This document shows, one piece after another, positions 16,833 through 36,843 of a DNA stretch of 64,000 nt. The first letter of the stretch is position 1. Each line of letters begins with the position of its first letter. The stretch covers positions 16,323 through 80,322 of the IMG/VR virus record IMGVR_UViG_3300028859_000017; one strand, given 5' to 3'. Made by a program: the position numbers and the translations under genes. Origin of the DNA: a virus. The notes below the pieces were generated by a model that did not search any database, was not told the origin of the DNA, and was given only the letters and a program-made list of their open reading frames with translations.

Positions 16833-17339
16833 CTACATATATTTAATTATAATGCTATCTAATTGGCTATATAGATTCTCAAATGATGAATTATTATCTA
16901 CTATATAATCATAATCAGTAAAGAAATCTAACTCTAATTCTGAAGAGTGGTTCATATTGGTTGCTCCCCTACTAATTCTTACATCCTCATTAGCTACTAT
17001 TCTAATAACAATAAAACCTTCCTCTTTTAATTTAATAAGTTCATTGAGATATCTAGAGTCTGTGATAAATATAGAATTTGTATTACATTTCATTTTATCT
17101 ATTAATTTAGATACCCAAATATCAGATTGCTGTTGTCTAGCCCAATCACCTAAAAATTGTAAAAACACTCTATTTTTTTCTTGTTTAAATCCTAAATTAT
17201 CTTGAACCATATGTAAAATATCGTATATGGGCTCAGCAAATGAGAACAATTCGGCATTTTTAATATAATTATGTTTAATATAAGTAGCAGAAACATCCTT
17301 ACCGCTCCTCATATTTCCAGCAAAGGCTATTTTTATCAT
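16833..17339 (-). CDS. deoxynucleoside monophosphate kinase (T4 gp1-like)
   Basis: P-loop GNMRSGKD, SFAEPI, R..LQ.LG, ITDSRY.NE, HSSE. Confidence 0.92.
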   Translation of the reverse strand: MIKIAFAGNMRSGKDVSATYIKHNYIKNAELFSFAEPIYDILHMVQDNLGFKQEKNRVFLQFLGDWARQQQSDIWVSKLIDKMKCNTNSIFITDSRYLNELIKLKEEGFIVIRIVANEDVRISRGATNMNHSSELELDFFTDYDYIVDNNSSFENLYSQLDSIIIKYM

Positions 17340-18568
17340 ACTGTAATCTCCTCGATATATTGTTCTAAGTTCTTTTCTTCTGTGTATGGAATAATTATTA
17401 GTTTTATATTATTTTCCTTAGCATATTGAACTTTCTCTATATCACGTTGCCTAGCTTTTAAATATTGTTCTTCTGTTTTATGAAAGTAATTTGGATAGAT
17501 ATAATGCTGATAACCATGATATTCAAAGGCTATTTTATGGTCTTCATTATAGCCATCCCATTCATATCTTTTACTATCGTACAAAAACCTTGTTTTAGTC
17601 AGAGTAAAACCAAACTTAGATTCTAATAATTCCTTACATCTAAGTTCTGTCTTAAAGGAAGCACATTCAGGACACCAAGTATTACTATTTTTAATATGGC
17701 CCCAATTAGCTTCCCATTGATGTGTTTCTTTACATTCCCATAATAATTTATTACTATTATCTATATAAGTTGTGGATAACAATTTTCCTTTTTTACTCTT
17801 AGCAAAATTTTGTAGCTCTATAATATCAGGTTTAGCCTTCCTAGCACAAATAGCACACCAGCTATTACTATTTTTAATACTGCCCCAATTGGCTTTCCAC
17901 TCATGTCCTTTTTCACATTTCCATAACATCTTAGTAATATTATTTATATACTCAGTAGAGACTAACTTGCCACCTTTATTTATGGCATATTCTTGTAATT
18001 CAGTTATATTAGGTTTAAGTGAGGAGCACCCAGGACACCAACTTTTTTTATTTTTAATATCTGTCCATTTAGCTTCCCATTGATGCCCTTCCTCACATTC
18101 CCATAACATCTTAGTAATATTATTTATATACTCAGTAGAGACTAACTTGCCACCTTTATTTATGGCATATTCTTGTAATTCAGTTATATTAGGTTTAACA
18201 CTACCTGAACAGTAGGGACACCAACTTTTTTTATTTTTAATATCTGTCCATTTAGCTTCCCATTGATGCCCTTCCTCACATTCCCATAACATTTTAGTCT
18301 TACTATTTATATATTTAATAGATACTAACTTGCCACTTCTGCTTCTAGCAAATTTTTGTAATTCAGTTATATTACATTTTTTAACCTTCCAAGCACAGTA
18401 AGGACACCAACTTCCTTGACGAACACTATTCCAGTTAGCTTCCCATTGATGCTTTTCTTTACATTCCCATGACATTTTTGTGAGAGCATTTATATACTCA
18501 GTAGATATTAACTTACCATCTTTATTAAGGGCAAATTCTTGACATACTTCTAAGTTACACTTTTTCAT
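17336..18568 (-). CDS. zinc-repeat (5 units) endonuclease with C-terminal Vsr/DUF559-like PD-(D/E)XK domain
   Basis: 5x WxCxxxHxW...WCPxC; C-terminal E...EWDGY...IAFEYHGYQH...D..K.....IKLIIIPY. Confidence 0.85.
   Translation of the reverse strand: MKKCNLEVCQEFALNKDGKLISTEYINALTKMSWECKEKHQWEANWNSVRQGSWCPYCAWKVKKCNITELQKFARSRSGKLVSIKYINSKTKMLWECEEGHQWEAKWTDIKNKKSWCPYCSGSVKPNITELQEYAINKGGKLVSTEYINNITKMLWECEEGHQWEAKWTDIKNKKSWCPGCSSLKPNITELQEYAINKGGKLVSTEYINNITKMLWKCEKGHEWKANWGSIKNSNSWCAICARKAKPDIIELQNFAKSKKGKLLSTTYIDNSNKLLWECKETHQWEANWGHIKNSNTWCPECASFKTELRCKELLESKFGFTLTKTRFLYDSKRYEWDGYNEDHKIAFEYHGYQHYIYPNYFHKTEEQYLKARQRDIEKVQYAKENNIKLIIIPYTEEKNLEQYIEEITV
17921..18292. repeat. identical intragenic tandem-repeat segments (period 180-183 bp)
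   Basis: 17921-18018 = 18101-18198 (98 bp) and 18033-18109 = 18216-18292 (77 bp). Confidence 0.9.
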
Positions 18569-18583
18569 ATCACAATATTCCTA

Positions 18584-19747
18584 TTAGATATACTTAACAT
18601 AAACCAGCTTTCCGCAGTCAAAGACGCGGAATTGAAAAAGCACATCTCTTGTATAATCGAGCTCAGTTTGTGTTGGAAGAATACCATGAAGATTACATTT
18701 TTTATTTGATTGCTTTCCTCTAACAATACATTTGCCTTCCTTAGCCGATTCCACAGAACACCAATAAGAATAATCGGATTGTAAAGTAGCATATAATTCA
18801 AAGTTTAAAACATTATAAAGATTACCTTGACTTATTCTTCTATCTGCCCAAGAGACAACGGTGTTATATCCTTTAGACTTTAAATCTTTTTCAGCAAAGG
18901 CCAAAACCTTACTTGAGCCACCTGGAATATTATAATTTGATTTTATAGCCAATCTATCTAATACAGTTGTGGTAGGCGAATTCCAGATACTTTGCGCACG
19001 GTGATGTCTTCCAAATGATACAACTTCAATTAAGACATTATTTACATCATATAGCCCATAAAAAAGATAAGATAAATTAGCAGGCCCTTGAATATGCTCT
19101 TCTTTTAAAAACTCATTTGCTTCTTGTTTAGTTATTGCTTTTACTGTACATTTTCTGGCAAATACTGTAATTTTATTTTGTTTAAGTGCTGAAGATAAGA
19201 AGTTAATCATCTTACTTCTTTTGGACTCCCATTCGTTTTCAAACACTGTAAGAACACGATTTCCGTCATTAACAAGTTCCTCCATATTTGAAATAATTAC
19301 TTTCTTAGCCTCAGCATAAGTTTTACACTTTCCTGATGATACTAGAATTTCTTGATGAAACTTACTTAGCTCAACAAAGGTAATAGCAAGCTTACTATTT
19401 TCTTCAAGTAAGGCTGATAATCCAAACTTCATATTTTTGAGAGTAAATGTTAGATTTGGATATAGTTTAATAATATCACTATAAAAAGTATCAGTAGCTG
19501 TTACTGGTATTACTGGAGCCACTTGAACTATTGCTGATTTGTTAAAGGTTTTTCTAATAACATCCCTATAGCAGCCACATGAAGTAGTATTTCCAGAAAC
19601 TAATGAGCCTGTAGCAACTTCTGTAGTTTTTCCACACTCACAAAGACATTCCCATATAGCTTTACGTTGATATCTCTTATCAGAAAGCTTAACAACAGTT
19701 AGCTTTCCATAAACATTACCAAGAAGAGATTTTGGTTTTCCAGACAT
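18584..19747 (-). CDS. Hef-like homing-endonuclease family protein with N-terminal zinc module and C-terminal GNAT/Mom-like region
   Basis: YGKLTV..WECLCECG..SCGC; ARKC...FL..EHIQG, GGSSK, SWADRRISQGNLY, FDCG. Confidence 0.75.
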   Translation of the reverse strand: MSGKPKSLLGNVYGKLTVVKLSDKRYQRKAIWECLCECGKTTEVATGSLVSGNTTSCGCYRDVIRKTFNKSAIVQVAPVIPVTATDTFYSDIIKLYPNLTFTLKNMKFGLSALLEENSKLAITFVELSKFHQEILVSSGKCKTYAEAKKVIISNMEELVNDGNRVLTVFENEWESKRSKMINFLSSALKQNKITVFARKCTVKAITKQEANEFLKEEHIQGPANLSYLFYGLYDVNNVLIEVVSFGRHHRAQSIWNSPTTTVLDRLAIKSNYNIPGGSSKVLAFAEKDLKSKGYNTVVSWADRRISQGNLYNVLNFELYATLQSDYSYWCSVESAKEGKCIVRGKQSNKKCNLHGILPTQTELDYTRDVLFQFRVFDCGKLVYVKYI

Positions 19748-19751
19748 TAGA

Positions 19752-20822
19752 TTAGTTCTCCATAAGTTCTGTTAAATAATTTTGAATATTTGTATTAATC
19801 TCATCTATAACTAACAAGTCTATTGGATTAGTAGACTCTCTAAGTGAGGCTACCTTAGATAAATACTCAGCAAACTCCATATCTACATCACCATTAAAGT
19901 TATTACAGTGGGCCTGTCCATGGTGTAGTTTACATAAAGTAATTAGATTAGTAGGTTCTGCTGCCAATGAAATATCCTCTGCTCTTTTAGTAATATGATG
20001 AACATACAAGTCTCCTCCTTGTTTATTACAGATAGCACATTTATAACCATCCGATTTCATAACTAATCTAGTAACAGGCCTTATAATACTTGAAATATGT
20101 TCTCTAATAGTTGACATTAAAATATCAGCAGGTTGTCCTTTTGATAGTCTATATTCCATAAAACGTTTCTGTGTTGCTTCCTTATTTAGACATCCACAAG
20201 ATTTAACAGCACCACTTAATAAATTACAAATATTAACTTCAGTGATTATTCCACAGTCACATACACATTTCCAAAAGTATCCTCCACCAGTTCTTCTATC
20301 CAAAGAACTAATAGCTGTTAATTTACCAAACTTTTGATTTGTAATATCTTTCTTATTTGAAATACCCTGAGCCTTAGCTTGATCCATATGAGCACAGCCA
20401 CATGATTTGGTATTACCTCTCTTAACATCTGAAAGTGGCTTTTCTACTATATTACCACAGTCACATCTAAATTTCCAAATAGTCACACCATTTTTCTTAT
20501 TTTCTGTTGGCTCCAATGCCAAAAGTCTATTAAACTTTTGTCCAGTTATATCCTTAGTATTAACTATTTTTCGTTGTTCTGCTCCAAAGCAACCACAACT
20601 TACAGTTACTCCACTAGTCAAAGCACTTCCTATAACTGTAGAATAATTTCCGCAAGAACATTTACATAGCCAAAATATAGTTCCAGTATTAGATTTTCCT
20701 GTATTTTCTATAGGATACAAAGCAACTAACTTTCCATAAACATTATTTGTTAGGTCTTTAGCTTTTTTTGTTAATGAAATCCTGTTTAACAATGTGACAT
20801 CATAATCTGATGGGTATACCAT
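19752..20822 (-). CDS. HNH homing endonuclease with three N-terminal zinc modules
   Basis: 3x (F/Y)G.L...W.C.C.CG...SCGC (first Cys replaced in unit 2); CAIC...VHHI...NLITLC..HH; GGAGG SD. Confidence 0.9.
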   Translation of the reverse strand: MVYPSDYDVTLLNRISLTKKAKDLTNNVYGKLVALYPIENTGKSNTGTIFWLCKCSCGNYSTVIGSALTSGVTVSCGCFGAEQRKIVNTKDITGQKFNRLLALEPTENKKNGVTIWKFRCDCGNIVEKPLSDVKRGNTKSCGCAHMDQAKAQGISNKKDITNQKFGKLTAISSLDRRTGGGYFWKCVCDCGIITEVNICNLLSGAVKSCGCLNKEATQKRFMEYRLSKGQPADILMSTIREHISSIIRPVTRLVMKSDGYKCAICNKQGGDLYVHHITKRAEDISLAAEPTNLITLCKLHHGQAHCNNFNGDVDMEFAEYLSKVASLRESTNPIDLLVIDEINTNIQNYLTELMEN

Positions 20823-20841
20823 GTAGCACCTCCAACATATA

Positions 20842-20868
20842 TTATCGGCAATGGTGATATAAAGTGTA
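20842..20868 (-). promoter_or_regulatory. sigma28/FliA-like promoter
   Basis: TACACTTT-N11-GCCGATAA upstream of the HNH gene. Confidence 0.8.
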
Positions 20869-20915
20869 GGGAAAATAAAAAATTATTTGCTATGTCACAT
20901 AAGGCCTAGCCACAC

Positions 20916-20942
20916 AAAAAGAAGGCCCAATAAAGGGCCCTC
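20916..20942 (-). terminator. intrinsic terminator after major capsid gene
   Basis: minus strand GAGGGCCC-TTTATT-GGGCCTTC-TTTTT. Confidence 0.85.
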
Positions 20943-20972
20943 ATTTTGCTTATAGTTACTATAGGATTAAGG

Positions 20973-22577
20973 TTAAACAACACCATAATCAGAGGCAGGA
21001 GTGGAACCAGATGTATAGAGGTTCTGAACCTGGAGAACACCTAAACCGTACGCGCCGTCGAGTAGAAGCTGATGGTCGTAACGTTGCTGTAAGCCGACAA
21101 CAGTTGAGAAAATATCACCTGAGAGGACATCAATTGAAGGTGGGGTAAGATATGTCACGAAGGGAAAGTACGCATATGGAGCCTTGCCTAAATCTTTAGA
21201 AGTGAAGCCCATGAGAATCTTGTCTGACTGGGGAAACTGAGGAGCCTTAGCAACAGTGAAGTTGTTGATGCTACCAAACTTCTCAGCATCAATACTGAAA
21301 TCACCCTGAGCCTTATGACCAGTATCAGTAGCCATCTTAAATTCGGCAGTATTCTGAAGCAGTGTAAATACATGGGGATGGGTAACAGCAAACATACCCT
21401 CACCACGAAGGAAGTCAATACTCATATCATTAGCAAGATAGTTCATCTTATGAACTAGTTCCTGGTTCTTCTGGAACATAGTGCCCCGGAAAGAGTTTGC
21501 AGGATAAGAAGCATCATAAGTAGAAATCTTACCAGCATTGGCCATCATGTCAAGCATCATTTCTAGGTCAATTTCAAGTGCCATTGACTCAGTCATGCCA
21601 CCAACTAGTTCCTTTAGAGCATCCATACGACCTTCAGTATAAGCTTCAAGGTCCTGAATAGCTTCTGCGGAAATCTGAGCAAAGTTCTTACGTGAACGAG
21701 TGCTAACCTGGATTAGACTCTGAACGAAACTAACTTCACCAAGAGCCTTATTACGTTCCTGATTATACTGATAGGTTACTGAGAAAGTAGCTGTTCCAGT
21801 AATAGTAAGACCAACAGCAGTAGCGGCAGCAGCAGCAGTCTGATTGAAGGTAATAGAAGGAACACCAGAACCATTAGTAGTTACAGTGCCATTAACATTG
21901 TCAGGGGAAACTGCAGCCATAACACCAGCACTATTATCAATAGCCACTACTACGGAATTACGAGGAATAGCACTATCATAAACTGCAATTGAAGCAGTGC
22001 CACTAATGTACGGAGTATAGGTGGGAGTATAACCAGATAAAGTAGAAGTTCCACCTACCTCAGTTACCTGCTGACCTGAGTAGTTGGCATCAATACCTGA
22101 AGTGGTATCTTCATACTGTGTTGCGCCTGAACCATAACGCTTGTAGGAAGCTGGGTTCATGTATTCCTGACCGGCAGTTGTAGCACCCTTAGTGGTATTA
22201 CGAGAAAGTCGGAAGGTCTGAATTACCTGAGTAGGAACATCAAGCTGGCGAGTAGCAATAAACTTAGTAACAACAATCTGTGGGAATACACGAGTTATAA
22301 TTGTTGGAAGCATTGCTTTGTTATAAGTTGCAACAGAGGCTGAGGTAGTTGCTTCAGTCAGTGGCTGATTCTTGGTGGCATACTGGAGTGATTTTACAGC
22401 ATGAAGAAAAACAGTATTACGATATTCAGCATCTGGAATAGCAGTCTGTAGATTTTCATTAAAAGTCTTCCAGAAAGAAGACTTGCCAGCCTTCTTAGCT
22501 GCTTGTTCATCACGCTCAAGAATTGCTCGTACTCGTTGCTCACTTAGCATTTCTAAATTAACAGGGTTTGTAAACAT
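20973..22577 (-). CDS. gp23: major capsid protein
   Basis: LTE|A cleavage-type site, PTIITRVFP, TRSRK, EAIQDL, EID, YFPFV, QRY; high-expression codon bias; AGGAG SD. Confidence 0.95.
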   Translation of the reverse strand: MFTNPVNLEMLSEQRVRAILERDEQAAKKAGKSSFWKTFNENLQTAIPDAEYRNTVFLHAVKSLQYATKNQPLTEATTSASVATYNKAMLPTIITRVFPQIVVTKFIATRQLDVPTQVIQTFRLSRNTTKGATTAGQEYMNPASYKRYGSGATQYEDTTSGIDANYSGQQVTEVGGTSTLSGYTPTYTPYISGTASIAVYDSAIPRNSVVVAIDNSAGVMAAVSPDNVNGTVTTNGSGVPSITFNQTAAAAATAVGLTITGTATFSVTYQYNQERNKALGEVSFVQSLIQVSTRSRKNFAQISAEAIQDLEAYTEGRMDALKELVGGMTESMALEIDLEMMLDMMANAGKISTYDASYPANSFRGTMFQKNQELVHKMNYLANDMSIDFLRGEGMFAVTHPHVFTLLQNTAEFKMATDTGHKAQGDFSIDAEKFGSINNFTVAKAPQFPQSDKILMGFTSKDLGKAPYAYFPFVTYLTPPSIDVLSGDIFSTVVGLQQRYDHQLLLDGAYGLGVLQVQNLYTSGSTPASDYGVV

Positions 22578-22597
22578 TCAATTATCTCCTGGATAAA

Positions 22598-22605
22598 ATT
22601 AATTA
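22598..22605 (-). promoter_or_regulatory. putative late promoter motif (T/G)AATTAANT
   Basis: TAATTAATT upstream of the capsid SD; same motif precedes more than 15 late-type genes. Confidence 0.6.
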
Positions 22606-22631
22606 TAGTTTTGTTACACTTTAAGTAGGTA

Positions 22632-23480
22632 TTAACCTAAATAAATCTCATAATCTAAAGCACTTGACTCTTTTGATTCAGTTACAACTTCTTTTTCTTG
22701 CTTTTTAGTTGCCAGATTTTCGGCAATTACTTTAAGTTTATTACGCTGTGGTGTGACTTCTACAGGCTTATCTACTACACTCTCAGTTACAACTACTTCT
22801 GGTTTCTGAGTAGCTTCTACTTCACGTTCCTTTAAAGCCTGTTTAGCAGCTTCAAGACATTTCTTTCCTTCTTCTAAATTCTTTGGTTCCATCTTAGTAA
22901 CTGTTTCATAAAGTAAAGCAATTTTTTCAGTTGGGTAGCCAGAGCATTCTGAGACAACTAGTGAATGTAAATCACCAATTAATGCTTTTGCTTCTAATAC
23001 CTTAATCTTTTTAAGGGACTCGTTAAGCTTATTCTTCATACTATCAAGGTCTGCTTGATTCTTTCCTTCTAGCTCATTTATGTTTATAAAGGGAGCCATT
23101 TCACTAACTGCCTTTGAGAAAGCTTCTTGAATTTTAGTAGATGTATTGGTAGCCTTAACATCTTCTTCTATAGCTTTAGTAATCTTTTTAACAGATTCAT
23201 TCATGAATTCGTAAACTTCTTTACCAAGCTTCTTCTTGGCTTCATTAAACTTAGCTTCATAAAAATCCTTTAGCTTAGTCTCATAAAGATTAGATTTAGC
23301 TAAGATAGTCTTCTTAAAAATAAAGGCTTCCTTTTCAAAGGACTTCTTCTGTTCTACTAATTTAGTTTTTTCAGTGTCTAATTCTGCCTTTGATTCTGCT
23401 ATAGCTGCCTGAATCTGCTCTTCAATAATCTGATGAACATCAGCATTTGCTAATAGTTCTTTAATCTGCTTCATATTCAT
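22632..23480 (-). CDS. gp22: prohead core scaffold protein
   Basis: Coiled-coil, Glu/Lys-rich, many xxE|S sites; between protease and capsid genes. Confidence 0.8.
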   Translation of the reverse strand: MNMKQIKELLANADVHQIIEEQIQAAIAESKAELDTEKTKLVEQKKSFEKEAFIFKKTILAKSNLYETKLKDFYEAKFNEAKKKLGKEVYEFMNESVKKITKAIEEDVKATNTSTKIQEAFSKAVSEMAPFININELEGKNQADLDSMKNKLNESLKKIKVLEAKALIGDLHSLVVSECSGYPTEKIALLYETVTKMEPKNLEEGKKCLEAAKQALKEREVEATQKPEVVVTESVVDKPVEVTPQRNKLKVIAENLATKKQEKEVVTESKESSALDYEIYLG

Positions 23481-23503
23481 ATTTATTCACCTATATAAAA
23501 TAA

Positions 23504-24130
23504 TTACTTACTTCTGAACATATCCCGTAAATCATCGATAAACTTTTTGCGCTCTAACTCATATTCTAACTTACGTTTAAAATCTAAACCTTCATTTACT
23601 GGTTGTATAAATGCTTTTTGTGTAGATGGGTCATGTACTGCATCAAAAGTGACAAGCTTATACTCATCTACAACGGTACTGTCATAACCCTCAGTAACTG
23701 AACCAAAACCTCTACTAGAAATACCGACAGTACAGTTATTTCTAATTAAAGCTCCTAACATTCTTCCTGAAGGGGTTCCTGCTGGGCCTGGGTCATCGAA
23801 AACTACTGCCTCACCTATTAAATCATTACCAGAAAATTTTAAATTTGTAATTACATGACTTACATTTTTTAAAGACACAGTAGGAGATTGGTTTTCTGGG
23901 TGGTCCATCTCGCCCAACATATTGCGTGACATTAAGCTTTCACTAGCTTCTTGAATTGCTTTATCTAAAACTTTGTATGGATAAACACGTCCATTTTGAT
24001 TTTTAGAGTCTGCTCTTTGAAATACACCTCTAAATTTAAGGCATTTCCAAGATGAATTTGAGTTTAGCTTTTCTTCTAAGAGCTCAAAGCCTTTTGTTGA
24101 AGAGGTTACTTCGATTAATGGATTATACAT
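23504..24130 (-). CDS. gp21: prohead protease
   Basis: GVFQRAD.KNQNGRVYP, GEMDHP, VSH, GISSRG.GS, FDAV.DPS. Confidence 0.96.
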   Translation of the reverse strand: MYNPLIEVTSSTKGFELLEEKLNSNSSWKCLKFRGVFQRADSKNQNGRVYPYKVLDKAIQEASESLMSRNMLGEMDHPENQSPTVSLKNVSHVITNLKFSGNDLIGEAVVFDDPGPAGTPSGRMLGALIRNNCTVGISSRGFGSVTEGYDSTVVDEYKLVTFDAVHDPSTQKAFIQPVNEGLDFKRKLEYELERKKFIDDLRDMFRSK

Positions 24131-24176
24131 TTACTGTCTCTTTCCCACAACTCATATTTCGTGCCTATTATTTATA

Positions 24177-27419: not shown

Positions 27420-28517
27420 TTAATTCCTTGATTTTACTTGCTCTAATAACTTTTCTGCCAATTCTTCATCATAGAGTTTTGATACTCCTTTATGAGTTTT
27501 ATATAAGTGACATGTTCTACACACTATTATTAGATTGTCCAAGTCCTTTATTTTTTCTGGAGCCACACTTTTGGGAATTATATGGTGACATTCTAACCTA
27601 TTAGCTGTTGTATCCTGACAACCACATAATTGACATTTATAATTATCTCTCTCAAGTACTTGTGGCTTTAAAACTCTTGACACATACCAGGCTATGCTTA
27701 TATTATTTTTATAATTAATATCTATCTTACATCTACTTGTAGTATATTCAGTGGCTTTTTGTATAATTTCCTTTTTATGCTCTTTATAATACTTAGAATA
27801 CCATACTTTATGTTGCTTTATTATGGCTTCTTTATGTTCTTCGTTATAAGTTTTTTGATACTCTTTTATTCTTTCTAAATTATTTAATTTATATATTTTA
27901 TTGGCTAAGCTTACTTTTTCTTTATTTATTTCTACATAAACTTTCTTTTTTAACTGTAATTCCTTTATATGAGTTTTATAATATACTCTAGTATACTCTT
28001 TTATTTGTTCTGAATGAGCTAACCTATATATTTTTTTCTTCTGTAAAATAATAGACCTATTATCATTACGATATTTCCTATTATAAACTTGTCTACATTC
28101 ATTACAATAGTGATATAATCCATTCTTTACTGCTTTATCTTCAGCAAAATAGGTTTTATTTTTTTCTACTCCACAGATAGAGCATTTTTGAACCTCAGTA
28201 ACTACAGCATCTACTCTTAGTTTGTTTTGTTTTTGATACAAAGATACCTTAGTTTTATTACATTCCTTACAAATTACACTATATCCATCTTTTTTATATT
28301 TATCCTTGGCAAATTCTTTTACATTTTTTTCTATATTACATTTAGTACATTGCTTAACTGTAATTTCCTTATTTACAATACTACAGCCATAAGTTTTAGA
28401 GTATTCTTTTACACACACCTTACACCAAATCTGTAAGCTATCTTTTGTTTTGGAATGCCTACCAAAAAAACTAGTATCCTTCTCAATACCACATTTTGAA
28501 CATGTTTTTACTGGCAT
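27420..28517 (-). CDS. HNH homing endonuclease with three CxxC...CxxC modules
   Basis: 3x K.C..C..EK...F......CxxC; ERDNYKCQLCG...LECHHI...NLIIVC..CH; start moved to ATG 28517 (GAGG SD; promoter overlaps the longer ORF start). Confidence 0.9.
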   Translation of the reverse strand: MPVKTCSKCGIEKDTSFFGRHSKTKDSLQIWCKVCVKEYSKTYGCSIVNKEITVKQCTKCNIEKNVKEFAKDKYKKDGYSVICKECNKTKVSLYQKQNKLRVDAVVTEVQKCSICGVEKNKTYFAEDKAVKNGLYHYCNECRQVYNRKYRNDNRSIILQKKKIYRLAHSEQIKEYTRVYYKTHIKELQLKKKVYVEINKEKVSLANKIYKLNNLERIKEYQKTYNEEHKEAIIKQHKVWYSKYYKEHKKEIIQKATEYTTSRCKIDINYKNNISIAWYVSRVLKPQVLERDNYKCQLCGCQDTTANRLECHHIIPKSVAPEKIKDLDNLIIVCRTCHLYKTHKGVSKLYDEELAEKLLEQVKSRN

Positions 28518-28537
28518 ATCACATACCTCTACATACA

Positions 28538-28564
28538 ATATCGGTAAATCCTATTCATACTGTA
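28538..28564 (-). promoter_or_regulatory. sigma28/FliA-like promoter
   Basis: TACAGTAT-N11-ACCGATAT. Confidence 0.75.
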
Positions 28565-28565
28565 G

Positions 28566-30545
28566 CTATCTATTACGATTACTGAAGAAATTATTATGCA
28601 TTTCTGTGAGGGCTCTAAATTCCTCACTAAATATGTCATCTACTGAAAACTTTCTAGCTGTTGGAATAAGTGATATACTCTCTGCTAAACTATAACTATT
28701 ATCAAGTATTAAGCCTCCCATATTACCTATGAGGTCCTCTGCTGCTCTTTCACGTTCCCATTGCTCTACAGGATGTTGAAGGTCTAAATCCTCTACTCCA
28801 GTACCATCATATTCACCAGATTTTATTTTGTGATATAATATAAGTCTACTCTCCAACATATCCTTAGATATACCCATCTTATTAGAATGATACTCTAAAT
28901 ACTCATCACTATATCTGCCATTCATAAGAGAAGAACTAGCATCATATATTACATTAGAGTCTTCTTGAGGTCTATGAATATGTTCTTTTGGTGTTAGAGA
29001 AACAACAGCTAATGATAGAGCCAATACAGCATCATCATTACCGTGCTTAGCTTCCATTTTTCTAGAGCCATCAGAATATATGGCACCAGCTGTAAAATTC
29101 TGCATTTGTAATTGTAATCTAGAACTATGTAAATTAGAGGCATTGGCTGTATTATTATAAAATAATAATAACTTTTCTATAAGTAAAGACCTAGTTGCTC
29201 TATTAGTCTGAAATCCTGGAGTTCCTTTAATTGGATCATACCATATATTATTATATCTTTTTTGTTCTAATAAATAAAATACCATTTCTGAATAAGAGTT
29301 AGCTTCTATAACTAATATAGCATTATTGTAGTGTCTACCAGCACGTATTAGAATATCTACAAATACTTCAGTTGGTAATTTTCCAATATATTCAGCACAT
29401 TGTTCATAAGTATCTTGGTCGATAACTTGGAAACTAGTATAATCCTTTGCTGTAGGTTTATTAGAGGCACAATCTACCCCTATTATATATTTTCTATTTT
29501 GTTCTGCTTTTTTCCATACAAGAAAAGTATCCTCATAAGTAGCTCCACCATATATTTGATTTAATATAGGCACATTATAATTTATAGCTGCTAATGCTTT
29601 TACATCAAATAATGAAAATAAATTTACCTGGAAAGCACAAAGATACTCTTGTTTAAACTTCTCTTCATTACCATTATCAAGTCTAATCTGGTCCTGTCTA
29701 AAGTTAGGATTCTTTGTAAATATAGATGAAACTGTCCAAGGTAATTCAAATAACTTCCAATTAGTCTCTCCAGGTTTATTTAAAGTTTTATTTGCTTGAG
29801 CAGTTGATACAGTTCTATAAAACCAATTTTCTGGTGAATTACCATTAGGAGTACTAATAGCAATAAGTTTACCATCAGAAGCAGCCACAGTAGGACCAAT
29901 AGCTTTCACAACTTCATCACAATCCTTGACGAAAGCTGCTTCATCAAGTAATACAAGAGTGGCAGAGAACGAACGAGCAGCATTGGCATTTGAAGTAATG
30001 GCTTTTATTCTGGATTTAGTATCAAATTCTACTTCACTTTTACTATATAAAGTACAAGAAGGCTTTAGCCACTCAGGGAGAAACTCGTAAGCTGTTTTAA
30101 GCTTTACAATAAACTCTTCTGCTGATTCTCTTCTATGGGCAACAATTAAACATCTTTTACCAGTTGAAAATATAGAAAACCAAAGAGCATAAAACATTAG
30201 AGATGTAGAAACACCTAACTGTCTTGCCTTTACAGTAATGACATATTTTTCATCAACAAAGGCTCTTAATAAAGTTCTCTGATATGGCTCCAAAACCATA
30301 GGGATTATGCCAGCCCCACCCGGACCGGTTATAAATCCATAAGTATTAGCAAAATATTCAATACTTTCAATACATTTCTTACGTTCTGTCTCAATATATT
30401 CTATTAAACAAGCCTTAATCTCATCTTCATTCTTGCCTTCAACTCTCCAATGCTTTATAAGTCTCTGTGGCTCATAGGAAATATGATGCTTGTCTTCAAC
30501 TTCATGCTGATATTTCTTTGCTAAAACTTTTTTACCTGATGCCAT
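28566..30545 (-). CDS. gp17: terminase large subunit
   Basis: KARQLGVST Walker A, LLDEAAF Walker B, ISTPNG, FKQEY.C.F, IGVD, IEAN, HGNDD. Confidence 0.96.
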   Translation of the reverse strand: MASGKKVLAKKYQHEVEDKHHISYEPQRLIKHWRVEGKNEDEIKACLIEYIETERKKCIESIEYFANTYGFITGPGGAGIIPMVLEPYQRTLLRAFVDEKYVITVKARQLGVSTSLMFYALWFSIFSTGKRCLIVAHRRESAEEFIVKLKTAYEFLPEWLKPSCTLYSKSEVEFDTKSRIKAITSNANAARSFSATLVLLDEAAFVKDCDEVVKAIGPTVAASDGKLIAISTPNGNSPENWFYRTVSTAQANKTLNKPGETNWKLFELPWTVSSIFTKNPNFRQDQIRLDNGNEEKFKQEYLCAFQVNLFSLFDVKALAAINYNVPILNQIYGGATYEDTFLVWKKAEQNRKYIIGVDCASNKPTAKDYTSFQVIDQDTYEQCAEYIGKLPTEVFVDILIRAGRHYNNAILVIEANSYSEMVFYLLEQKRYNNIWYDPIKGTPGFQTNRATRSLLIEKLLLFYNNTANASNLHSSRLQLQMQNFTAGAIYSDGSRKMEAKHGNDDAVLALSLAVVSLTPKEHIHRPQEDSNVIYDASSSLMNGRYSDEYLEYHSNKMGISKDMLESRLILYHKIKSGEYDGTGVEDLDLQHPVEQWERERAAEDLIGNMGGLILDNSYSLAESISLIPTARKFSVDDIFSEEFRALTEMHNNFFSNRNR

Positions 30546-30546
30546 A

Positions 30547-31440
30547 TTATCTACCTATTATATCACTTATATCACTTATATAACTCTCTAAATTTTTCTC
30601 TTCTGTATAGGGTATTATGATTAGTTTTATATTATTCTCTTTGGCATATATCACTTTATCCATATCACGTTGTTTAGCTTTTAAATGCTGTTCTTCTGTT
30701 TTTTGAAAAAAATTTGGAAATATATAGTGCTGATAACCATGATACTCAAATGCTATTTTATGTTCTTCATTATAACCATCCCATTGATATCTATGTTTAT
30801 TATATTTAAAATTAGTCTTTATAAATTTAATATTTAGTTTTTGTTCTAATAACTCTTTACATTTATACTCTGTCTTAAAAGAGGCACATTCAGGACACCA
30901 TTGCCTTTGATCCTTTATAGCATGCCATATAGCATGCCATATAGCATGCCATTGATGACCCTCTTTACATTCCCATAGCATTTTAGTATTATTGTTTATA
31001 TAAACAGAGTCTAAACATTTTCCATTTCTTGATTTAGCATAATTACAGCACTCAGAAATATCGGATTTAACATTCCCGCAGCAATATGGGCACCAAGTAT
31101 TATCTGAGTTAACTACATGCCAACAAGAAAACCATGAGTGACCACTACTACATTCCCACTCCATCTTAGCTTTATTATTGGTGTAGTTAGTTGACTTCAG
31201 TTTTCCTCCTCTAGCTATAGCATAGGCTTGTAAAATCTCTATTGAAGTCCTAACACAACTATTACAAGTAGGACACCAAGTATTATGAAAGCTTACCTCA
31301 CTCCAGTTAGCCTTCCACTGATGACCCTTCTCACATTCCCATAACATCTTTGTTCTATTATTTATATAAACAATATCCAAGCATTTACCATTCTTAGATT
31401 TAGCATGCTCTTGACATACCTCTATAGTTCCTCTTCTCAC
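30547..31440 (-). CDS. zinc-repeat (3 units) endonuclease, paralogue of 17336..18568
   Basis: 3x WEC..GH.W...WCP.C with near-identical C-terminal nuclease domain. Confidence 0.85.
   Translation of the reverse strand: MRRGTIEVCQEHAKSKNGKCLDIVYINNRTKMLWECEKGHQWKANWSEVSFHNTWCPTCNSCVRTSIEILQAYAIARGGKLKSTNYTNNKAKMEWECSSGHSWFSCWHVVNSDNTWCPYCCGNVKSDISECCNYAKSRNGKCLDSVYINNNTKMLWECKEGHQWHAIWHAIWHAIKDQRQWCPECASFKTEYKCKELLEQKLNIKFIKTNFKYNKHRYQWDGYNEEHKIAFEYHGYQHYIFPNFFQKTEEQHLKAKQRDMDKVIYAKENNIKLIIIPYTEEKNLESYISDISDIIGR
30916..30951. repeat. 3 x 12-bp perfect tandem repeat (TATAGCATGCCA)
   Basis: Encodes WHAI-WHAI-WHAI within the third zinc unit. Confidence 0.95.
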
Positions 31441-31442
31441 TA

Positions 31443-31973
31443 CTACTCCTCTGATAGCAAATCAGTTATTGACGATTCCTTTAATGTATTTTTAGTATTT
31501 AAATGCTCTGTTTCAAAATCTAAAGAATCTTCAGCATCTATATCAATAGTTGTAAAAGGTAAAGTCTGTTGATGTGATTTTTTTTCATTTATAGATTTTT
31601 GTGTAGACACTGTAGCCCCTAAAGCCGCTCCCAAACCAATACCAGAGAGTATAGAATCAATATCGGTACCCTGAGACTTTTTCTTAGTACTAACATCAAT
31701 ACTTTTATCACTAACCAGAGTCTTAAGAATGTCATTACGTTTCTTAAAGGTATCCATTCTAATTTCATAGAATCTAGCTAAAGCTATTGCTAAAACAGCA
31801 TCAGTAGATTGTACCACCCTATCTTGGAGAATTTCGACAATAGCATCTAAGTCTGATGAAACTATTTCTAACTCACTAAGTTGTTTAGCTACTTCATCAT
31901 CTACTATGTTATTAGTTTTATCTATTCTTGACTCAGTTTTATTCTTCTTTATTTGTGGAGTAGTATCTGACAT
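31443..31973 (-). CDS. probable terminase small subunit (gp16-like position)
   Basis: 176 aa, helical, upstream of the large subunit and separated from it only by an endonuclease. Confidence 0.5.
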   Translation of the reverse strand: MSDTTPQIKKNKTESRIDKTNNIVDDEVAKQLSELEIVSSDLDAIVEILQDRVVQSTDAVLAIALARFYEIRMDTFKKRNDILKTLVSDKSIDVSTKKKSQGTDIDSILSGIGLGAALGATVSTQKSINEKKSHQQTLPFTTIDIDAEDSLDFETEHLNTKNTLKESSITDLLSEE

Positions 31974-31974
31974 C

Positions 31975-33291
31975 TTATAACTTTCTAAAAATTGTAATCA
32001 TTCTAAATCTATGATTAGTAGACTTACACATTCCTATTACAGCCTCTAAACTAAATTCATCCTTTCTATACATTGGAAGAACTTGGTCTAACCATACAAC
32101 ATAAGTTCCAGATACTAGCCCTCTTCCTAAGGCCTTCATTACTTTATTTCGTTTAATCATAGTAGTTTGATAGTGGTCACAATCCTCAACTGAATATGGA
32201 GGGTCTGCTAATACTAAATCAAAAGTAGCTAATGGAACATTAAGTAGTGATTGAGCATCGTCTACATAATCAGGATTATTAGCTGGATTTATATCTACAG
32301 TCTTACCAGGAAATATAACTGTATCAACTTTACCAGAAAACAAATGAAGAACATTCAATTTATCAGGAAAAAGTGCCTTAATACGTTTTAAATAGCCAGC
32401 TGGGTATGAATTATGAGAAGCCAAACCATAGGCTACAAAAGTTTTTGACTCTGTATTCATACCAATAAATTCATGGTCGGAATTAGTTGGAGTTATACAT
32501 TTAATTTTAATAACTCCATTTTTTATTGGTAATTTCGAATTTATCCAGCCATTTAACATTCTAATTGGCCTAGTAATTCCAAGAAGCATTAATGAATCTG
32601 AAAAATTGTTAGTTCTTGTTTCACATTGAACTTTGCCAGTTTTTCTGTGCCTCTCTTTAGAAACAAATGGAACTTTAAGCAATGTCAAAATATCTATTAT
32701 TTTACTTTGTACTAATCCTGGATTCTGTGTTATATTAATACGAAGCCCCGCGCCGGAATCTAAATTGCCTTCTCCATCAATAATTCCACCTAACCAACCA
32801 GCATCATTACTGTTGTCTACATTATCCCATTGATTACATACCGCTCTAATTAAATCTCCATTTTTAAGCTCATCTGCCCTTCTCCATGTAGTTCTATTTT
32901 TTGGTTTACTATTCCCATTAACTAGCCAAAGATGACTATTACTACAGATAAAATTCCTCCCGTCTTCTAATTCAATTTTTATTCCCGGTAAAGTTACTGG
33001 TCCCACATCAATTACCTTTGTTGGGTATACTGCTCTTTTATTTAAATTAATAATAGTTTCGTCAAATCCAACAAGCATATCACCCGCTTTGACTTTGGAC
33101 ATAGGAATCCATCGTAAATCAGCAGTAAGCACTGGAGCATCTGGTGCCAAACAGCCATAATAATCTTTTCTTGCTTGATAGTTATTGCCCATAATCCAAG
33201 TCCCTACAACCCTATCATCCTCTCCTATAAATAAAGACTTAGGAAATCCTGTCTCTTTTACATAATTTTCTATTCTTTCTTCCCAGTTCAT
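31975..33291 (-). CDS. amino (m6A/m4C) DNA methyltransferase interrupted by an intein
   Basis: Spliced product about 190 aa with LHLFSG (motif I) and LADPPY (motif IV). Confidence 0.85.
   Translation of the reverse strand: MNWEERIENYVKETGFPKSLFIGEDDRVVGTWIMGNNYQARKDYYGCLAPDAPVLTADLRWIPMSKVKAGDMLVGFDETIINLNKRAVYPTKVIDVGPVTLPGIKIELEDGRNFICSNSHLWLVNGNSKPKNRTTWRRADELKNGDLIRAVCNQWDNVDNSNDAGWLGGIIDGEGNLDSGAGLRINITQNPGLVQSKIIDILTLLKVPFVSKERHRKTGKVQCETRTNNFSDSLMLLGITRPIRMLNGWINSKLPIKNGVIKIKCITPTNSDHEFIGMNTESKTFVAYGLASHNSYPAGYLKRIKALFPDKLNVLHLFSGKVDTVIFPGKTVDINPANNPDYVDDAQSLLNVPLATFDLVLADPPYSVEDCDHYQTTMIKRNKVMKALGRGLVSGTYVVWLDQVLPMYRKDEFSLEAVIGMCKSTNHRFRMITIFRKL
32410..33153 (-). mobile_element. 248-aa intein with a single LAGLIDADG motif
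   Basis: YYG|CLAPDAPVLT...CSNSHLW (block B)...WLGGIIDGEG...FVAYGLASHN|SYP. Confidence 0.93.
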
Positions 33292-33292
33292 A

Positions 33293-34273
33293 TCATTCCT
33301 TATCTTCTATACTATCTGAAACATTTTGCTTTTGAGAGAATATTATTAGAGGTCCAAATGTCTCTTTTAATAACTCAAGAGCATCCTGAACCTCTTTTAT
33401 CTTAACACCACATTCATTTTTTAAAGTAAATACTAAATTATTTGCTAATCGTGGCCCTGCTTCTGGTATATGAATAAGTTCCAATAATTTTGTTATTATT
33501 TTTTTATTTAAAGGAGTTATTAAATCATCTTCTATGTTTGATAAATACTCTAAAACTAATAAAAATTCCTGGAAAATTATAGGGGCATCAGTAGAAAGAT
33601 AGGCTTCATTACCAAATAATCGTGAAATATTATCATAACTAACATTAGTGATTCGTTCAGCACCATAGTTCATAGTAATTGTAGTTATACCATAGTTTAA
33701 AATCATTACAAAATATGTGAATACTCTGGCATAAATTGGATTACCCCTATCATCAGTTCCTACAACTCTATTAGGGTCAAACTTATCCATGGCCTGAATA
33801 ATTTTTAATATGGCACTTTGAAAAATTTCCTCATATGCTAACCCATGCTTATGACGGGCATATTTGAAGATTACCCCATCGATAAGCTGATAACAATAAG
33901 TTAAAAAATCATTCCTATCATTATAGTCTTTACTATCATGCCATTTAGTCCATAAATATTTTCCTACATCCTCTATAAAATAGTTATTAGACTTCTTTCC
34001 TCTTTTCTTTTTATCGGCAAGTTCTGGATATCTTTCAGGATATAAGCTATATGCCTTTAATAGAAAAGAAGAACTATACTTATTATTAGGAAATTTATCA
34101 AGCATTTCACCAATAATTCGTTTTTCCATAAAGTCCACATCAATTTTAGAATATAGAATTACTCTATATCCGTGCTTAACATCTTTTCCAATATCATCTC
34201 GGTCTATGCCAAGATTATCATATATATTTTCATAAGTTGGTAAATTTACTTCAAAATTATTATCTATTTCCAA
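33293..34273 (-). CDS. phage sigma factor, gp55-like late sigma with N-terminal extension
   Basis: KKSNNYF...EEIFQSAILKIIQAMDKFDP...VFTYF, matching the sigma region 2 pattern. Confidence 0.75.
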   Translation of the reverse strand: MEIDNNFEVNLPTYENIYDNLGIDRDDIGKDVKHGYRVILYSKIDVDFMEKRIIGEMLDKFPNNKYSSSFLLKAYSLYPERYPELADKKKRGKKSNNYFIEDVGKYLWTKWHDSKDYNDRNDFLTYCYQLIDGVIFKYARHKHGLAYEEIFQSAILKIIQAMDKFDPNRVVGTDDRGNPIYARVFTYFVMILNYGITTITMNYGAERITNVSYDNISRLFGNEAYLSTDAPIIFQEFLLVLEYLSNIEDDLITPLNKKIITKLLELIHIPEAGPRLANNLVFTLKNECGVKIKEVQDALELLKETFGPLIIFSQKQNVSDSIEDKE

Positions 34274-34308
34274 AGCATACCTTCTTTAATTACTTAATTA
34301 TAACTACA

Positions 34309-34335
34309 ATATCGGATAAACTAAATTAATTCTTA
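34309..34335 (-). promoter_or_regulatory. sigma28/FliA-like promoter of the sigma gene
   Basis: TAAG-N15-TCCGATAT, followed by two AATTAA late-type motifs (34285-34300). Confidence 0.7.
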
Positions 34336-34339
34336 ATAT

Positions 34340-34373
34340 AAAAATACCCTAATTTAGTAAGAATTAGGGTATT
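34340..34373 (-). terminator. intrinsic terminator
   Basis: AATACCCTAATT-N7-AATTAGGGTATT with T tract on minus. Confidence 0.8.
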
Positions 34374-34398
34374 CAATATAGTAAGTAAGAAATAAAAA

Positions 34399-35460
34399 TT
34401 ATATAGTTATATTCTCTATTTGCTTATTAATATATTCCTCTAAATTATTATTTTCAGTATATGGAATAATTATTAATTTTATATTATTTTCATTAGCATA
34501 TATCACTTTATCCATATCTCTTTGAACTGCTTTTTCATGTATCTCTAAAGTTCTATGCCAATGATTAGGATAAATATAATGCTGAATTCCTTGATACTCA
34601 AAGGCTGCTTTATGTTCCTCATTATAGCCATCAAATTCATATCTATTACCCTTGTAAATAAAACGTGTCTTCTTAAATTTATAACCTAATTTTTGCTCTA
34701 AAAGTTCTTTACATTTATATTCTGTTTTAAAAGAAGAACATTCAGGGCACCAACTATGGTTATTTTTAATATTATCCCAAATAGCTTCCCACTGATGACC
34801 TTTTTCACACCCCCATACCATTTTTGTATTACTATTTATATATTTAGTGGATATTAATTTACCTTGTTTGCTAGAGGCAAATTGCTGTAACTCAATAATG
34901 CTACATTTTCGTAATTCAGCACAGCACTCTGGACACCAACTTTTGGAATTTTTAATGTGATCCCAACGAGCTTCCCATTGATGACCCTCTGAACACTCCC
35001 ATAATAATTTAGTATTATTATTTATATATTTAATAGATAATAGTCTTCCATTTTTATTTTCAGCATGTTTTTGTAACTCCTTTATATCACAAAGGGTGCT
35101 AGAACATGCTGGACACCACTGACCAGCATTTTTAATATTATTCCAACAAGCTTCCCATTGATGCCCCTCTGAACACTCCCATAATAATTTAGTATTATTA
35201 TTTATATATTTAGTGGATATTAATTTACCTTGTTTGCTAGAGGCATATTCCTGTAATTCAATTATATTAGGTTTAGCTTTTCCAGCACAATAAGGACACC
35301 AACTACCACTATTAATACTATTCCAATGAGCTTCCCATTGATGCCCATCTTTACATTGCCACAATAATTTATGCTTACTATCAACATATTCTGTAGATAA
35401 TAATAAGCCACCTTTAGCAGCAGCAAAGGCCTGTAAGGTAGCTACATCATATTTTTTCAT
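34399..35460 (-). CDS. zinc-repeat (4 units) endonuclease, paralogue of 17336..18568
   Basis: 4x W.C..GHQW...WCP.C plus EFDGY...AFEYQGIQH domain. Confidence 0.85.
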   Translation of the reverse strand: MKKYDVATLQAFAAAKGGLLLSTEYVDSKHKLLWQCKDGHQWEAHWNSINSGSWCPYCAGKAKPNIIELQEYASSKQGKLISTKYINNNTKLLWECSEGHQWEACWNNIKNAGQWCPACSSTLCDIKELQKHAENKNGRLLSIKYINNNTKLLWECSEGHQWEARWDHIKNSKSWCPECCAELRKCSIIELQQFASSKQGKLISTKYINSNTKMVWGCEKGHQWEAIWDNIKNNHSWCPECSSFKTEYKCKELLEQKLGYKFKKTRFIYKGNRYEFDGYNEEHKAAFEYQGIQHYIYPNHWHRTLEIHEKAVQRDMDKVIYANENNIKLIIIPYTENNNLEEYINKQIENITI

Positions 35461-36624
35461 TTAATCATCTATTCCAGATAAGTCAGCTATATCTCTAATA
35501 TCAGAAGCATCAGGAAGAATAGCCTCTTCAGAACCAGCTGAAAAATTAAGTTTCTCACTATAGCAATTACGCATCATTTTTAGAAAATGCTGCTTATTTT
35601 CCTCAGACTCGTTAAATAATTTAGTGAATGTATCAATAGAATTAAACTTTTTCTCGGAACCATCTGGCATGATAATAGTCTTCCAAGCAGCTTTACCCAT
35701 ATAATCAGCATCATTTAATAAATCATAGACAATATGTGGATTGTAATAACCACGGTCATCATAATACAAACGTAGCGGAATGGTCCTCCCTAAAGCAGCC
35801 GAGGACTTACATTTTATTATTTTTGTTCTCACGAAATGACCAGAAGGAAGCTTGGGGTCAGAGCCTATAAATTTACCTCTATCCATAAATAATCTAGAAA
35901 TACAGGCATAACGAACAGCATCTCCTCCAACAGTAGTATATACAGGTCCTTGCCAAGAACTAGTCATGCCACCAATTTGCTGTCTTACTTGATTTATAAT
36001 TAATACAGCTAGGTTAGTCTCACGGCACAGCATTTTAGTTCGTTTTAGACCTTTTGAAATCATTTTAGCAGTCATGGCCACAGTGCTTGTCTCATAATCA
36101 CTTTCTAATTCGGCCCTGGTGCTTAATCCTGCCAGGGAATCTAAAACTACTAAACTAGGAACAGATATATTTTTACGCTGAATATAATTAGCGATTTTTT
36201 CAATTTGAGCAAAAGCACGTTCTGCCAAATCCTCTACTGTAATAATACACTTTTTAGTGTCAACACCGAAATTTTCCATTCTAAACCGATCGCCTGACCC
36301 GCCCTCAGTGTCAATAAGGCAAGCAAGGCCACCAAGCTTCTGAACTTGAGCCAACATATGAATACCGAAGGAGCTCTTCCCCGACCCCTCTTTTCCCGAA
36401 ATTTCTGCCATAGCTCCCTGTATAAGGCCTCCTCCAAGTAAGAAATCTAACGAATCTATTCCAGTTGGTATAAAAGACCTTACAAAGTCTTCATCATCTA
36501 GTGCTGTATTGCCACCAAATTCCTTTCTCAATTGGCTCTTAAATTCGTCAAGGTCATTAAAATTATCGGTAGCATTAATGATACTTATATCTCTATCTAA
36601 TTTATTTGATTTTTTGGCTGGCAT
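35461..36624 (-). CDS. uvsX: RecA-like recombinase UvsX
   Basis: IPTG..SLD..LGGG, GKEGSGKS, IDTEG, VLDSLA, INQVR; start moved to ATG 36624 (GGAG SD, promoter upstream). Confidence 0.95.
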   Translation of the reverse strand: MPAKKSNKLDRDISIINATDNFNDLDEFKSQLRKEFGGNTALDDEDFVRSFIPTGIDSLDFLLGGGLIQGAMAEISGKEGSGKSSFGIHMLAQVQKLGGLACLIDTEGGSGDRFRMENFGVDTKKCIITVEDLAERAFAQIEKIANYIQRKNISVPSLVVLDSLAGLSTRAELESDYETSTVAMTAKMISKGLKRTKMLCRETNLAVLIINQVRQQIGGMTSSWQGPVYTTVGGDAVRYACISRLFMDRGKFIGSDPKLPSGHFVRTKIIKCKSSAALGRTIPLRLYYDDRGYYNPHIVYDLLNDADYMGKAAWKTIIMPDGSEKKFNSIDTFTKLFNESEENKQHFLKMMRNCYSEKLNFSAGSEEAILPDASDIRDIADLSGIDD

Positions 36625-36644
36625 TATGTCATCTCCATAGTATA

Positions 36645-36671
36645 TTATCGACAAATACAAGAAAAGCCTGA
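36645..36671 (-). promoter_or_regulatory. sigma28/FliA-like promoter of uvsX
   Basis: TCAG-N15-GTCGATAA. Confidence 0.7.
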
Positions 36672-36690
36672 GAGATATCCCAGGCACCTT

Positions 36691-36843
36691 CTATAGGTTA
36701 GTGATATAATCTTCTAAATTCTTTTCTTCTGTATAGGGTATTATTAATAATTTTATATTATTTTCTCTAGCATATTCTATCTTATCTAAATCACGTTGTT
36801 TTGCTGCTAAATGTCTAAGGTCTGTAATAGTATAAGTAATCAT
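36691..36843 (-). pseudogene. internally deleted fourth copy of the zinc-repeat endonuclease (50 codons)
   Basis: MITYTITDLRHLAAKQRDLDKIEYARENNIKLLIIPYTEEKNLEDYITNL; C-terminus nearly identical to the three intact copies. Confidence 0.85.

Follow-up and report, generated by a model that had tools for sequence, protein, structure and literature searches.

The 64,000-nucleotide stretch of DNA analysed here (the window; positions 16,323 to 80,322 of IMG/VR record IMGVR_UViG_3300028859_000017) comes from an uncultured large peat phage. Its source is an AT-rich viral contig of 80,322 bp (GC ~32%, CheckV completeness ~46%) whose DNA recurs in at least 19 peat-metagenome runs. Between conserved genes of this phage we studied three paralogous genes, HEG-A, HEG-B and HEG-C, which are very likely free-standing homing endonuclease genes (HEGs) that combine an array of CapR-like zinc units with a nuclease of the EDxHD/Vsr fold.

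All three open reading frames (ORFs) are intact and lie on the minus strand, with 5, 3 and 4 units as the initial annotation of this DNA had proposed. Units of ~61 amino acids stand in tandem, and the nuclease domain, of ~110 amino acids, is C-terminal. The genes and their parts are as follows, in window coordinates:

17336..18568, minus strand: HEG-A, 410 amino acids, five zinc units and a predicted C-terminal Vsr-fold nuclease (PF14311, E 2.5e-22; PF21817, E 5e-20)
18389-18571, 18203-18388, 18020-18205, 17840-18025 and 17657-17842, minus strand: HEG-A units 1-5
17336..17656, minus strand: HEG-A nuclease domain (FKTE...DGY...FEYHGYQH...QRD)
30547..31440, minus strand: HEG-B, 297 amino acids, three units and nuclease (PF14311, 27.3 bits against a cutoff of 24.5)
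30925..30948 (approximate), minus strand: 12-nucleotide in-frame duplication (IWHA-IWHA) within HEG-B unit 3, in its variable segment
34399..35460, minus strand: HEG-C, 353 amino acids, four units and nuclease
35281-35460, 35098-35283, 34918-35103 and 34732-34917, minus strand: HEG-C units 1-4
34399-34731, minus strand: HEG-C nuclease
36691..36843, minus strand: decayed copy between gp32 and recA, a 50-codon ORF with the C-terminal tail of the nuclease only

The HEG genes are packed against core genes, with stop and start codons that overlap or abut. The HEG-A stop overlaps the start of the deoxynucleoside monophosphate (dNMP) kinase gene (ATGA). HEG-B exactly fills the junction of the terS-like gene and TerL: the GTG start of HEG-B overlaps the terS stop region, and its stop lies 1 nucleotide before the TerL ATG. 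The HEG-C ATG directly follows the recA stop (TAAATG). The genes named as neighbours in the initial annotation (dNMP kinase, terS/TerL, RecA and gp32) do adjoin the HEGs, and the deleted copy that it mentioned is the 50-codon remnant. The four-residue segments around the second tryptophan of each unit also read as it had listed them: NWNS/KWTD/KWTD/NWGS/NWGH in HEG-A, NWSE/CWHV/IWHA in HEG-B and HWNS/CWNN/RWDH/IWDN in HEG-C. The nuclease domains, described there as near-identical, are 66-70% identical among HEG-A, HEG-B and HEG-C; they are homologous, not near-identical.

Zinc units and nuclease domain

The units match the Pfam families PF14311 (DUF4379, "probable treble clef zinc finger") and PF21817 (CapR homology domain). 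The scores of HEG-A (79.3 and 71.9 bits, respectively) and HEG-C (79.5 and 74.4 bits) are far above the gathering cutoffs of 24.5 and 24.2, and HEG-B also clears the PF14311 cutoff. Six residues, G19, W35, C37, H41, C57 and C60, are invariant in 140/140 aligned units. C37, H41, C57 and C60 form a C-x3-H...C-x2-C (CHCC) site, in two pairs as in the CapR/DUF4379 family, where the pairs are spaced by about 20-26 residues, and this ligand pattern suggests that each unit binds one zinc ion. CapR was shown in 2021, by electrophoretic mobility shift assay (EMSA) and cysteine mutants, to bind a specific ~30-bp probe and to require its four cysteines (PMC8096241); by analogy, each unit of the HEG proteins may contribute to DNA binding. 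In P0006, the representative of the HEG-A cluster, the first zinc-ligand cysteine of unit 2 is replaced by glycine (LWEGEEGH) in an otherwise identical 5-unit array, and this unit, judging from the substitution, is probably disabled.

AlphaFold2 models of HEG-C (predicted local distance difference test score, pLDDT, 86) and of a single unit (pLDDT 84) give the same unit layout: a helix, a short strand, a beta-hairpin carrying the C/H ligands, a 6-residue helix and a CPxC knuckle. The 6-residue helix begins at the Trp of the x-W-x-x-I motif in both models and carries no zinc ligand. The initial annotation had likened the unit to a C2H2 finger. A C2H2 finger has a beta-beta-alpha fold, with two cysteines in the hairpin and two histidines in the recognition helix. 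In the HEG unit, the hairpin supplies C-x3-H and the segment that follows the helix supplies C-x2-C, and there is no zf-C2H2 Pfam match; the unit is therefore not C2H2 and the analogy fails. The unit profile found no match in a sequence search against the PDB. Fold searches with the single-unit model likewise returned no convincing solved relative (best Z-score 3.6), and no C2H2 or other DNA-bound zinc module was among the matches, which does not in itself make this a new fold. The only recurring, weak structural neighbours were kinetoplastid mitoribosomal proteins (6sga_Fd, 6hiv_DS, 7ane_at and 6yxx_E2), with Z-scores of 2.9-3.6 over 57-58/62 residues.

The nuclease assignment comes from the C-terminal model. 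Residues 243-353 of HEG-C match Vsr (1cw0) with a Z-score of 10.1 and a root-mean-square deviation of 2.4 Å over 105 aligned residues, and the same domain matches the catalytic domain of I-Bth0305I (3r3p) with a Z-score of 9.5 over 94/97 residues and a Foldseek probability of 1.00. E247, D277, E288, H294 and D315 (HEG-C numbering) are invariant in 30/30 homologues. Of these, E247, D277, H294 and D315 fit the E, D, H and D of the composite EDxHD motif, the last three as putative counterparts of Vsr D51, H69 and D97. The spacing of the catalytic motif, D-11-E-6-H-21-D, falls between that of I-Bth0305I (12, 5, 9) and that of Vsr (13, 5, 28). The domain is under purifying selection (dN/dS 0.11-0.37), and the model suggests that it would cut DNA with a Vsr-type active site. 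Modelled as a homodimer, the nuclease domain scored 0.12 against a mark of 0.42, which speaks neither for nor against a dimer. Taken together, the Pfam matches of the units and the predicted Vsr fold are in line with the proposal of modular zinc-unit arrays on a Vsr-type nuclease.

The family is broad. HEG-C gave 1507 database matches at E<1e-10 in one search, and 212 viral-contig loci carry members with 2-6 units. Full-length tblastn matches (90-95% coverage, ~28% identity) occur in cultured Staphylococcus, Bacillus, Lactococcus and Listeria phages, and full-length relatives are found in Lactobacillus phages too; the matched genes of cultured phages are annotated as homing endonucleases. The unit itself is not confined to phage nucleases, since long arrays of it (up to ~10 units, 550-617 amino acids) occur in many cellular and metagenomic proteins (P0008, P0010, P0019, P0031 and others). 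Some of these long-array proteins carry BRCT or other-family domains, and one comes from an Asgard archaeon metagenome-assembled genome.

Array alleles and turnover of the genes

The recA-sigma locus, which holds HEG-C, offers a direct view of array change. The upstream flanks of contigs L006, L010 and L095 are 99.6-99.7% identical at this locus at the nucleotide level; downstream, identity is 100% for L006 and L010 and 95.4% for L095. The HEG-C alleles between these flanks are the following:

Window: HWNS-CWNN-RWDH-IWDN, 4 units
L006 (3943-5370): RWAN-CWDN-SWDN-CWHN-RWDH-CWSP, 6 units
L095: the first four L006 units, with a differing nuclease variant
L010 (7165-8232): EWHS-KWNS-SWDN-SWDN, 75% identical overall

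The nuclease domain of the L006 allele equals that of the window HEG-C at the nucleotide level. Units are also gained or lost elsewhere in the family: a single 61-amino-acid unit is exactly what distinguishes P0002 from P0009, two proteins from the database. Within HEG-A, comparison of a 162-nucleotide core per unit (from 28 codons before the WxC knuckle to CxxC) identified unit 3 as an exact hybrid: 87 nucleotides at the 5' end equal unit 4, and ~78 nucleotides at the 3' end equal unit 2. This is the expected product of one unequal crossover, which indicates that the HEG-A array grew in this way from 4 to 5 units. Repeat shuffling, as suggested for this family in the initial annotation, is thus borne out by units that were gained, lost and recombined. 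On a smaller scale, L006, 99% identical to the source contig, does not have the 12-nucleotide duplication of HEG-B. When the HEG-C locus was compared with contigs of four peat runs, the flanks lay in long clean contigs and the array was fragmented, with joints that skip 180 and 372 nucleotides (1 and 2 units); these joints could be assembler artefacts across repeats and are not counted as evidence.

The distribution of the genes is sporadic. The relatives L008 and L009 (~70% amino acid identity) carry none of HEG-A, HEG-B and HEG-C, and their terS and TerL genes abut. At their recA-sigma site, equivalent to that of HEG-C, stands a GIY-YIG+NUMOD3 HEG instead (L008:7568-8281), and the site between methyltransferase and terS holds an HNH_3+AP2 HEG (L008:9820-10299). 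Intergenic slots are therefore reused by different HEG families. Decay can be followed at the gp32-recA site, where L010 (99%-related) retains 2 units and a frameshifted nuclease tail, and the window and L006 only the 50-codon stub. In a second 50-codon mini-copy, located outside the window between structural genes (G000:C1:9577-9729, minus strand, in L094), the nuclease tail is joined to the first helix of unit 1; this copy is as long as the remnant at 36691-36843 but has a different breakpoint. The packing against core genes, the absence from L008/L009 and the decay series at gp32-recA point to the classical HEG cycle of insertion, fixation and decay. More generally, free-standing phage HEGs occur sporadically between conserved genes, have paralogues and decayed copies, and are replaced in relatives by other HEG families at the same sites; the genes studied here show this pattern. 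A HEG life cycle is visible in one genome block, from insertion through array remodelling to decay into mini-ORFs.

By analogy with other HEG families, we can propose the following course. Upon co-infection, the enzyme would cut a HEG-less allele near its own insertion site, and repair of the cut allele would copy the HEG in. Fixed copies may later decay to mini-ORFs, and the arrays would change by unequal crossover and gene conversion among units, paralogues and alleles.

The surrounding block (16.8-37.8 kb), entirely on the minus strand, encodes a dNMP kinase, capsid and portal proteins, TerL and a terS-like protein, and further a small methyltransferase, a sigma-like protein, RecA/UvsX and gp32. 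The neighbours of the HEGs and of the remnant are:

16833..17339, minus strand: dNMP kinase (PF21448), neighbour of HEG-A
28566..30545, minus strand: terminase large subunit (TerL), neighbour of HEG-B
33293..34273, minus strand: sigma-factor-like gene downstream of HEG-C (weak Sigma70_r2 match)
35461..36687, minus strand: RecA/UvsX-like recombinase (PF00154), with the remnant upstream and HEG-C downstream
36908..37816, minus strand: gp32-like single-stranded DNA-binding protein (PF08804), upstream of the remnant

The block contains further mobile or repeat-bearing genes. The small DNA methyltransferase gene (31975-33291, minus strand) carries an intein of ~248 amino acids (weak Pfam Intein_splicing match); in L006 this gene is intein-free and encodes 190 amino acids (L006:6478-7050). 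The extein residues beside the insertion point differ between the window and L006 (VKSTFYGG and ARKDYYG...S, respectively), which looks like a co-conversion or immunity tract as far as the sequences can indicate. Between TerL and portal, the gene at 27420-28538 (minus strand) has four CxxC...CxxC zinc-ribbon-like repeats and a Pfam HNH domain. The gene at 19752-20822 (minus strand) has four 'YGKL...W.C.C.CG...SCGC' repeats and a C-terminus judged HNH-like by eye, with no Pfam match. With these two genes beside the HEGs, three repeat types serve nucleases in one genome. Directly upstream of HEG-A, the protein of 18584-19747 (minus strand) has one N-terminal 'YGKL...WECLCECG...SCGC' unit fused to a Mom-family domain (PF25680, E 1.4e-9).

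Variable residues and possible roles of the arrays

The initial annotation had pointed to strong variation around the second tryptophan of the unit. In 35 unit pairs at 80-99% identity, the residue before the Trp of x-W-x-x-I (-1) differs in 57% of the pairs, residue +1 in 71% and residue +2 in 49%. In the same pairs, the x of CPxC differs in 66%, the loop before WCP in 34-46% and the N-terminal helix half in at most 17%. Entropy over 109 unique units also marks the Trp-flanking sites as variable, and flags linker and helix-surface sites too. Per-site Nei-Gojobori counts of nonsynonymous differences over the mean synonymous value (pN/mean pS), made on 33 independent unit pairs, reach 1.36 at -1, 1.31 at +1 and 0.76 at +2, compared with 0.45 overall, ~1.0 at several loop and linker sites and <0.3 at many sites of the unit scaffold. 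The hot spot is thus real and lies at the start of the short helix, but variability is almost as high at the x of CPxC, in the loops that precede WCP and the first hairpin strand, and in the linker between units. The entropy and dN/dS comparison suggested in that annotation accordingly places the Trp-flanking sites as the fastest outside the linker, at rates (~1.3) that are compatible with neutrality. We considered strong positive selection at the hot sites and rejected it: the rates are not clearly above neutrality and recombination confounds the estimate.

Polar residues (S, T, N, D, H, R, K) predominate at the hot sites. The conserved W and I lie three positions apart, so the side chains that vary are probably directed outward in the modelled helix, and those of the hot spot would face DNA. 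The (-1,+1,+2) triplets amount to 144 distinct ones in 192 units, close to the 155.6 +/- 3.6 expected from independent sampling, which rules out a small residue vocabulary of the TALE type.

What, then, could the arrays do? One reading, taken from the initial annotation, is that each unit recognises a few base pairs with the residues that surround the Trp of x-W-x-x-I (helix positions -1, +2 and +3), so that exchange of units would retarget the Vsr-type nuclease to the adjacent gene, much like a zinc-finger nuclease (ZFN) or a transcription activator-like effector nuclease (TALEN). In its fullest form, which we add here, each unit would contact a short, predictable sub-site and the x of CPxC would take part in the contact. 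The location of the fastest non-linker sites on either side of a Trp that starts a short helix in both AlphaFold2 models, the 57-71% of close unit pairs that differ there, the polar character of these residues, the natural gain and loss of whole units and the position of the HEG-B duplication within the Trp-flanking variable segment all speak for it. Yet rates of ~1.3 fit neutral drift at unconstrained surface sites, the triplets show no vocabulary like that of repeat-variable di-residues, and variation is about as high in two loops, in the linker and at the x of CPxC. Four very different arrays stand at one locus with near-identical flanks (99.6-100% identical), which argues against arrays tuned to the adjacent gene. 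Moreover, the unit is not a C2H2 fold and matches no solved structure. With near-neutral hot sites, no small vocabulary, no solved structure and no C2H2 fold, a programmable code per unit is unproven, and we regard it as unlikely. In another reading, the arrays serve above all as low-specificity affinity or anchoring modules; the nuclease domain would define most of the target, and array variation would reflect neutral drift and repeat recombination and play no part in functional retargeting. Near-neutral hot sites with random-looking residue combinations, arrays that are interchangeable at one locus, and repeats that are intrinsically recombinogenic (cf. the exact hybrid unit) would all be expected in that case. 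I-Bth0305I, the one characterised EDxHD enzyme, provides a precedent that also counts against a code read by the units: its footprint is ~60 bp, but most of its specificity comes from the 14 central bp, where it cleaves, and not from the accessory DNA-binding region (PMC3239194). However, CapR, made of this unit type alone, discriminates DNA probes in EMSA, so the unit can be sequence-specific, and the unit scaffold is under clear purifying selection, many sites having pN/pS <0.3. HEGs, besides, generally need long targets that spare their own genome. Generic anchoring appears possible but doubtful.

The genes might also not be selfish at all, and have been domesticated as CapR-like repressors, as exclusion nucleases against competing phages or satellites, or for degradation of host DNA. 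Domestication has precedents for both the unit and HEG nucleases, in CapR and Odn (PMC8096241, PMC10448857). HEG-C is present in every close relative found, as a fixed gene would be, and its nuclease is under purifying selection. Against this, three paralogues and two decayed copies are at separate intergenic sites beside core genes, and the next-closest relatives lack the genes and have other HEG families at the same sites. An intein and HNH HEG-like genes are also present in this block. Turnover of HEGs accounts for the overall pattern better than one domesticated function would, and we consider domestication quite improbable.

The interpretation of HEG-A, HEG-B and HEG-C as free-standing HEGs has several points weighing against it. 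Neither the nuclease domain nor its profile has a Pfam or PDB sequence match at E up to 10, Pfam Vsr and DUF559 giving none at E 10, so that the nuclease assignment rests on predicted structure; the suggested equivalence to Vsr D51/H69/D97 is drawn from residue order and spacing. In scans of viral contigs with TerL, RecA and dNMP kinase, and of metagenome contigs with RecA, no HEG-less allele above 90% nucleotide identity was found for sites A, B or C, and among such close relatives the target site is therefore not deducible. For this HEG sub-family, cleavage, target site and homing are predictions by analogy with other HEGs.

Relation to known systems

Both the architecture (zinc-unit array and Vsr-type nuclease) and modular target diversification are already published (PMC12350094, PMC10448857), and HEG-A, HEG-B and HEG-C are new free-standing members of this architecture. 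What is new here is the presence, in near-identical peat-phage contigs, of 4-unit, 6-unit and 75%-identical alleles at one locus, together with an exact hybrid unit made by crossover and with substitutions concentrated beside the Trp that starts the short helix. Near-clonal phages in which the flanks are identical and the HEG varies in its number of units and at a few helix positions constitute a natural experiment. This allelic series could separate a modular code, useful for protein engineering, from generic anchors. If modular reading were true, it would join C2H2 fingers and TALEs as the third programmable code of protein-DNA recognition in nature, and the 4-, 6-, 4-unit series would be the key to decoding it.

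The closest published proteins are phage HEGs described in a 2025 Nucleic Acids Research paper on phage group II introns, with three to five CapR/DUF4379/DUF723-like domains of ~60 amino acids and a C-terminal EDxHD/Vsr-like nuclease. They were presented as a large unrecognised outgroup of EDxHD HEGs, and their relation to EDxHD/Vsr was called distant (PMC12350094). Architecture, unit size, unit number (3-5) and nuclease type are the same as in the window. However, the published genes are inside group I/II introns, whereas the window copies are free-standing between genes of the late and replication operons.

The zinc unit itself links HEG-A, HEG-B and HEG-C to CapR, from a PLE satellite of V. 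cholerae, and to the T5orf172 HEGs of phage ICP1, which share the unit family and its tandem repetition. Barth, Dunham and Seed described in 2023 the CapR/DUF723/DUF4379 zinc repeats of T5orf172 HEGs as "beads on a string", and reported domain shuffling and intragenic repeat recombination that they proposed to diversify target recognition (PMC10448857). Those proteins have a nuclease of the T5orf172/GIY-YIG type or none, whereas a Vsr fold is predicted here. The ligands of CapR also differ, being CxxC...CxC (CCCC) instead of the C-x3-H...C-x2-C of the window units.

On the nuclease side, I-Bth0305I (3R3P) has a Vsr-like fold in common with the HEG-C model, with acidic and His residues in the same order, and both are phage-borne and recA-associated. 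I-Bth0305I is nevertheless intron-encoded, binds DNA via NUMOD/HTH (helix-turn-helix) elements and not zinc units, and has no detectable sequence similarity to HEG-C. Vsr (1CW0/1VSR), the best structural match of the C-terminal domain of HEG-C, is a monomeric repair enzyme that nicks at mismatches and has its own zinc site and no repeat array. Finally, engineered ZFNs (C2H2 fingers and FokI) and TALENs are an analogy of design only, in that an array of small modules is set on a separate nuclease: unit fold, zinc-ligand layout and nuclease all differ, and units of the window type do not draw on a small residue vocabulary.

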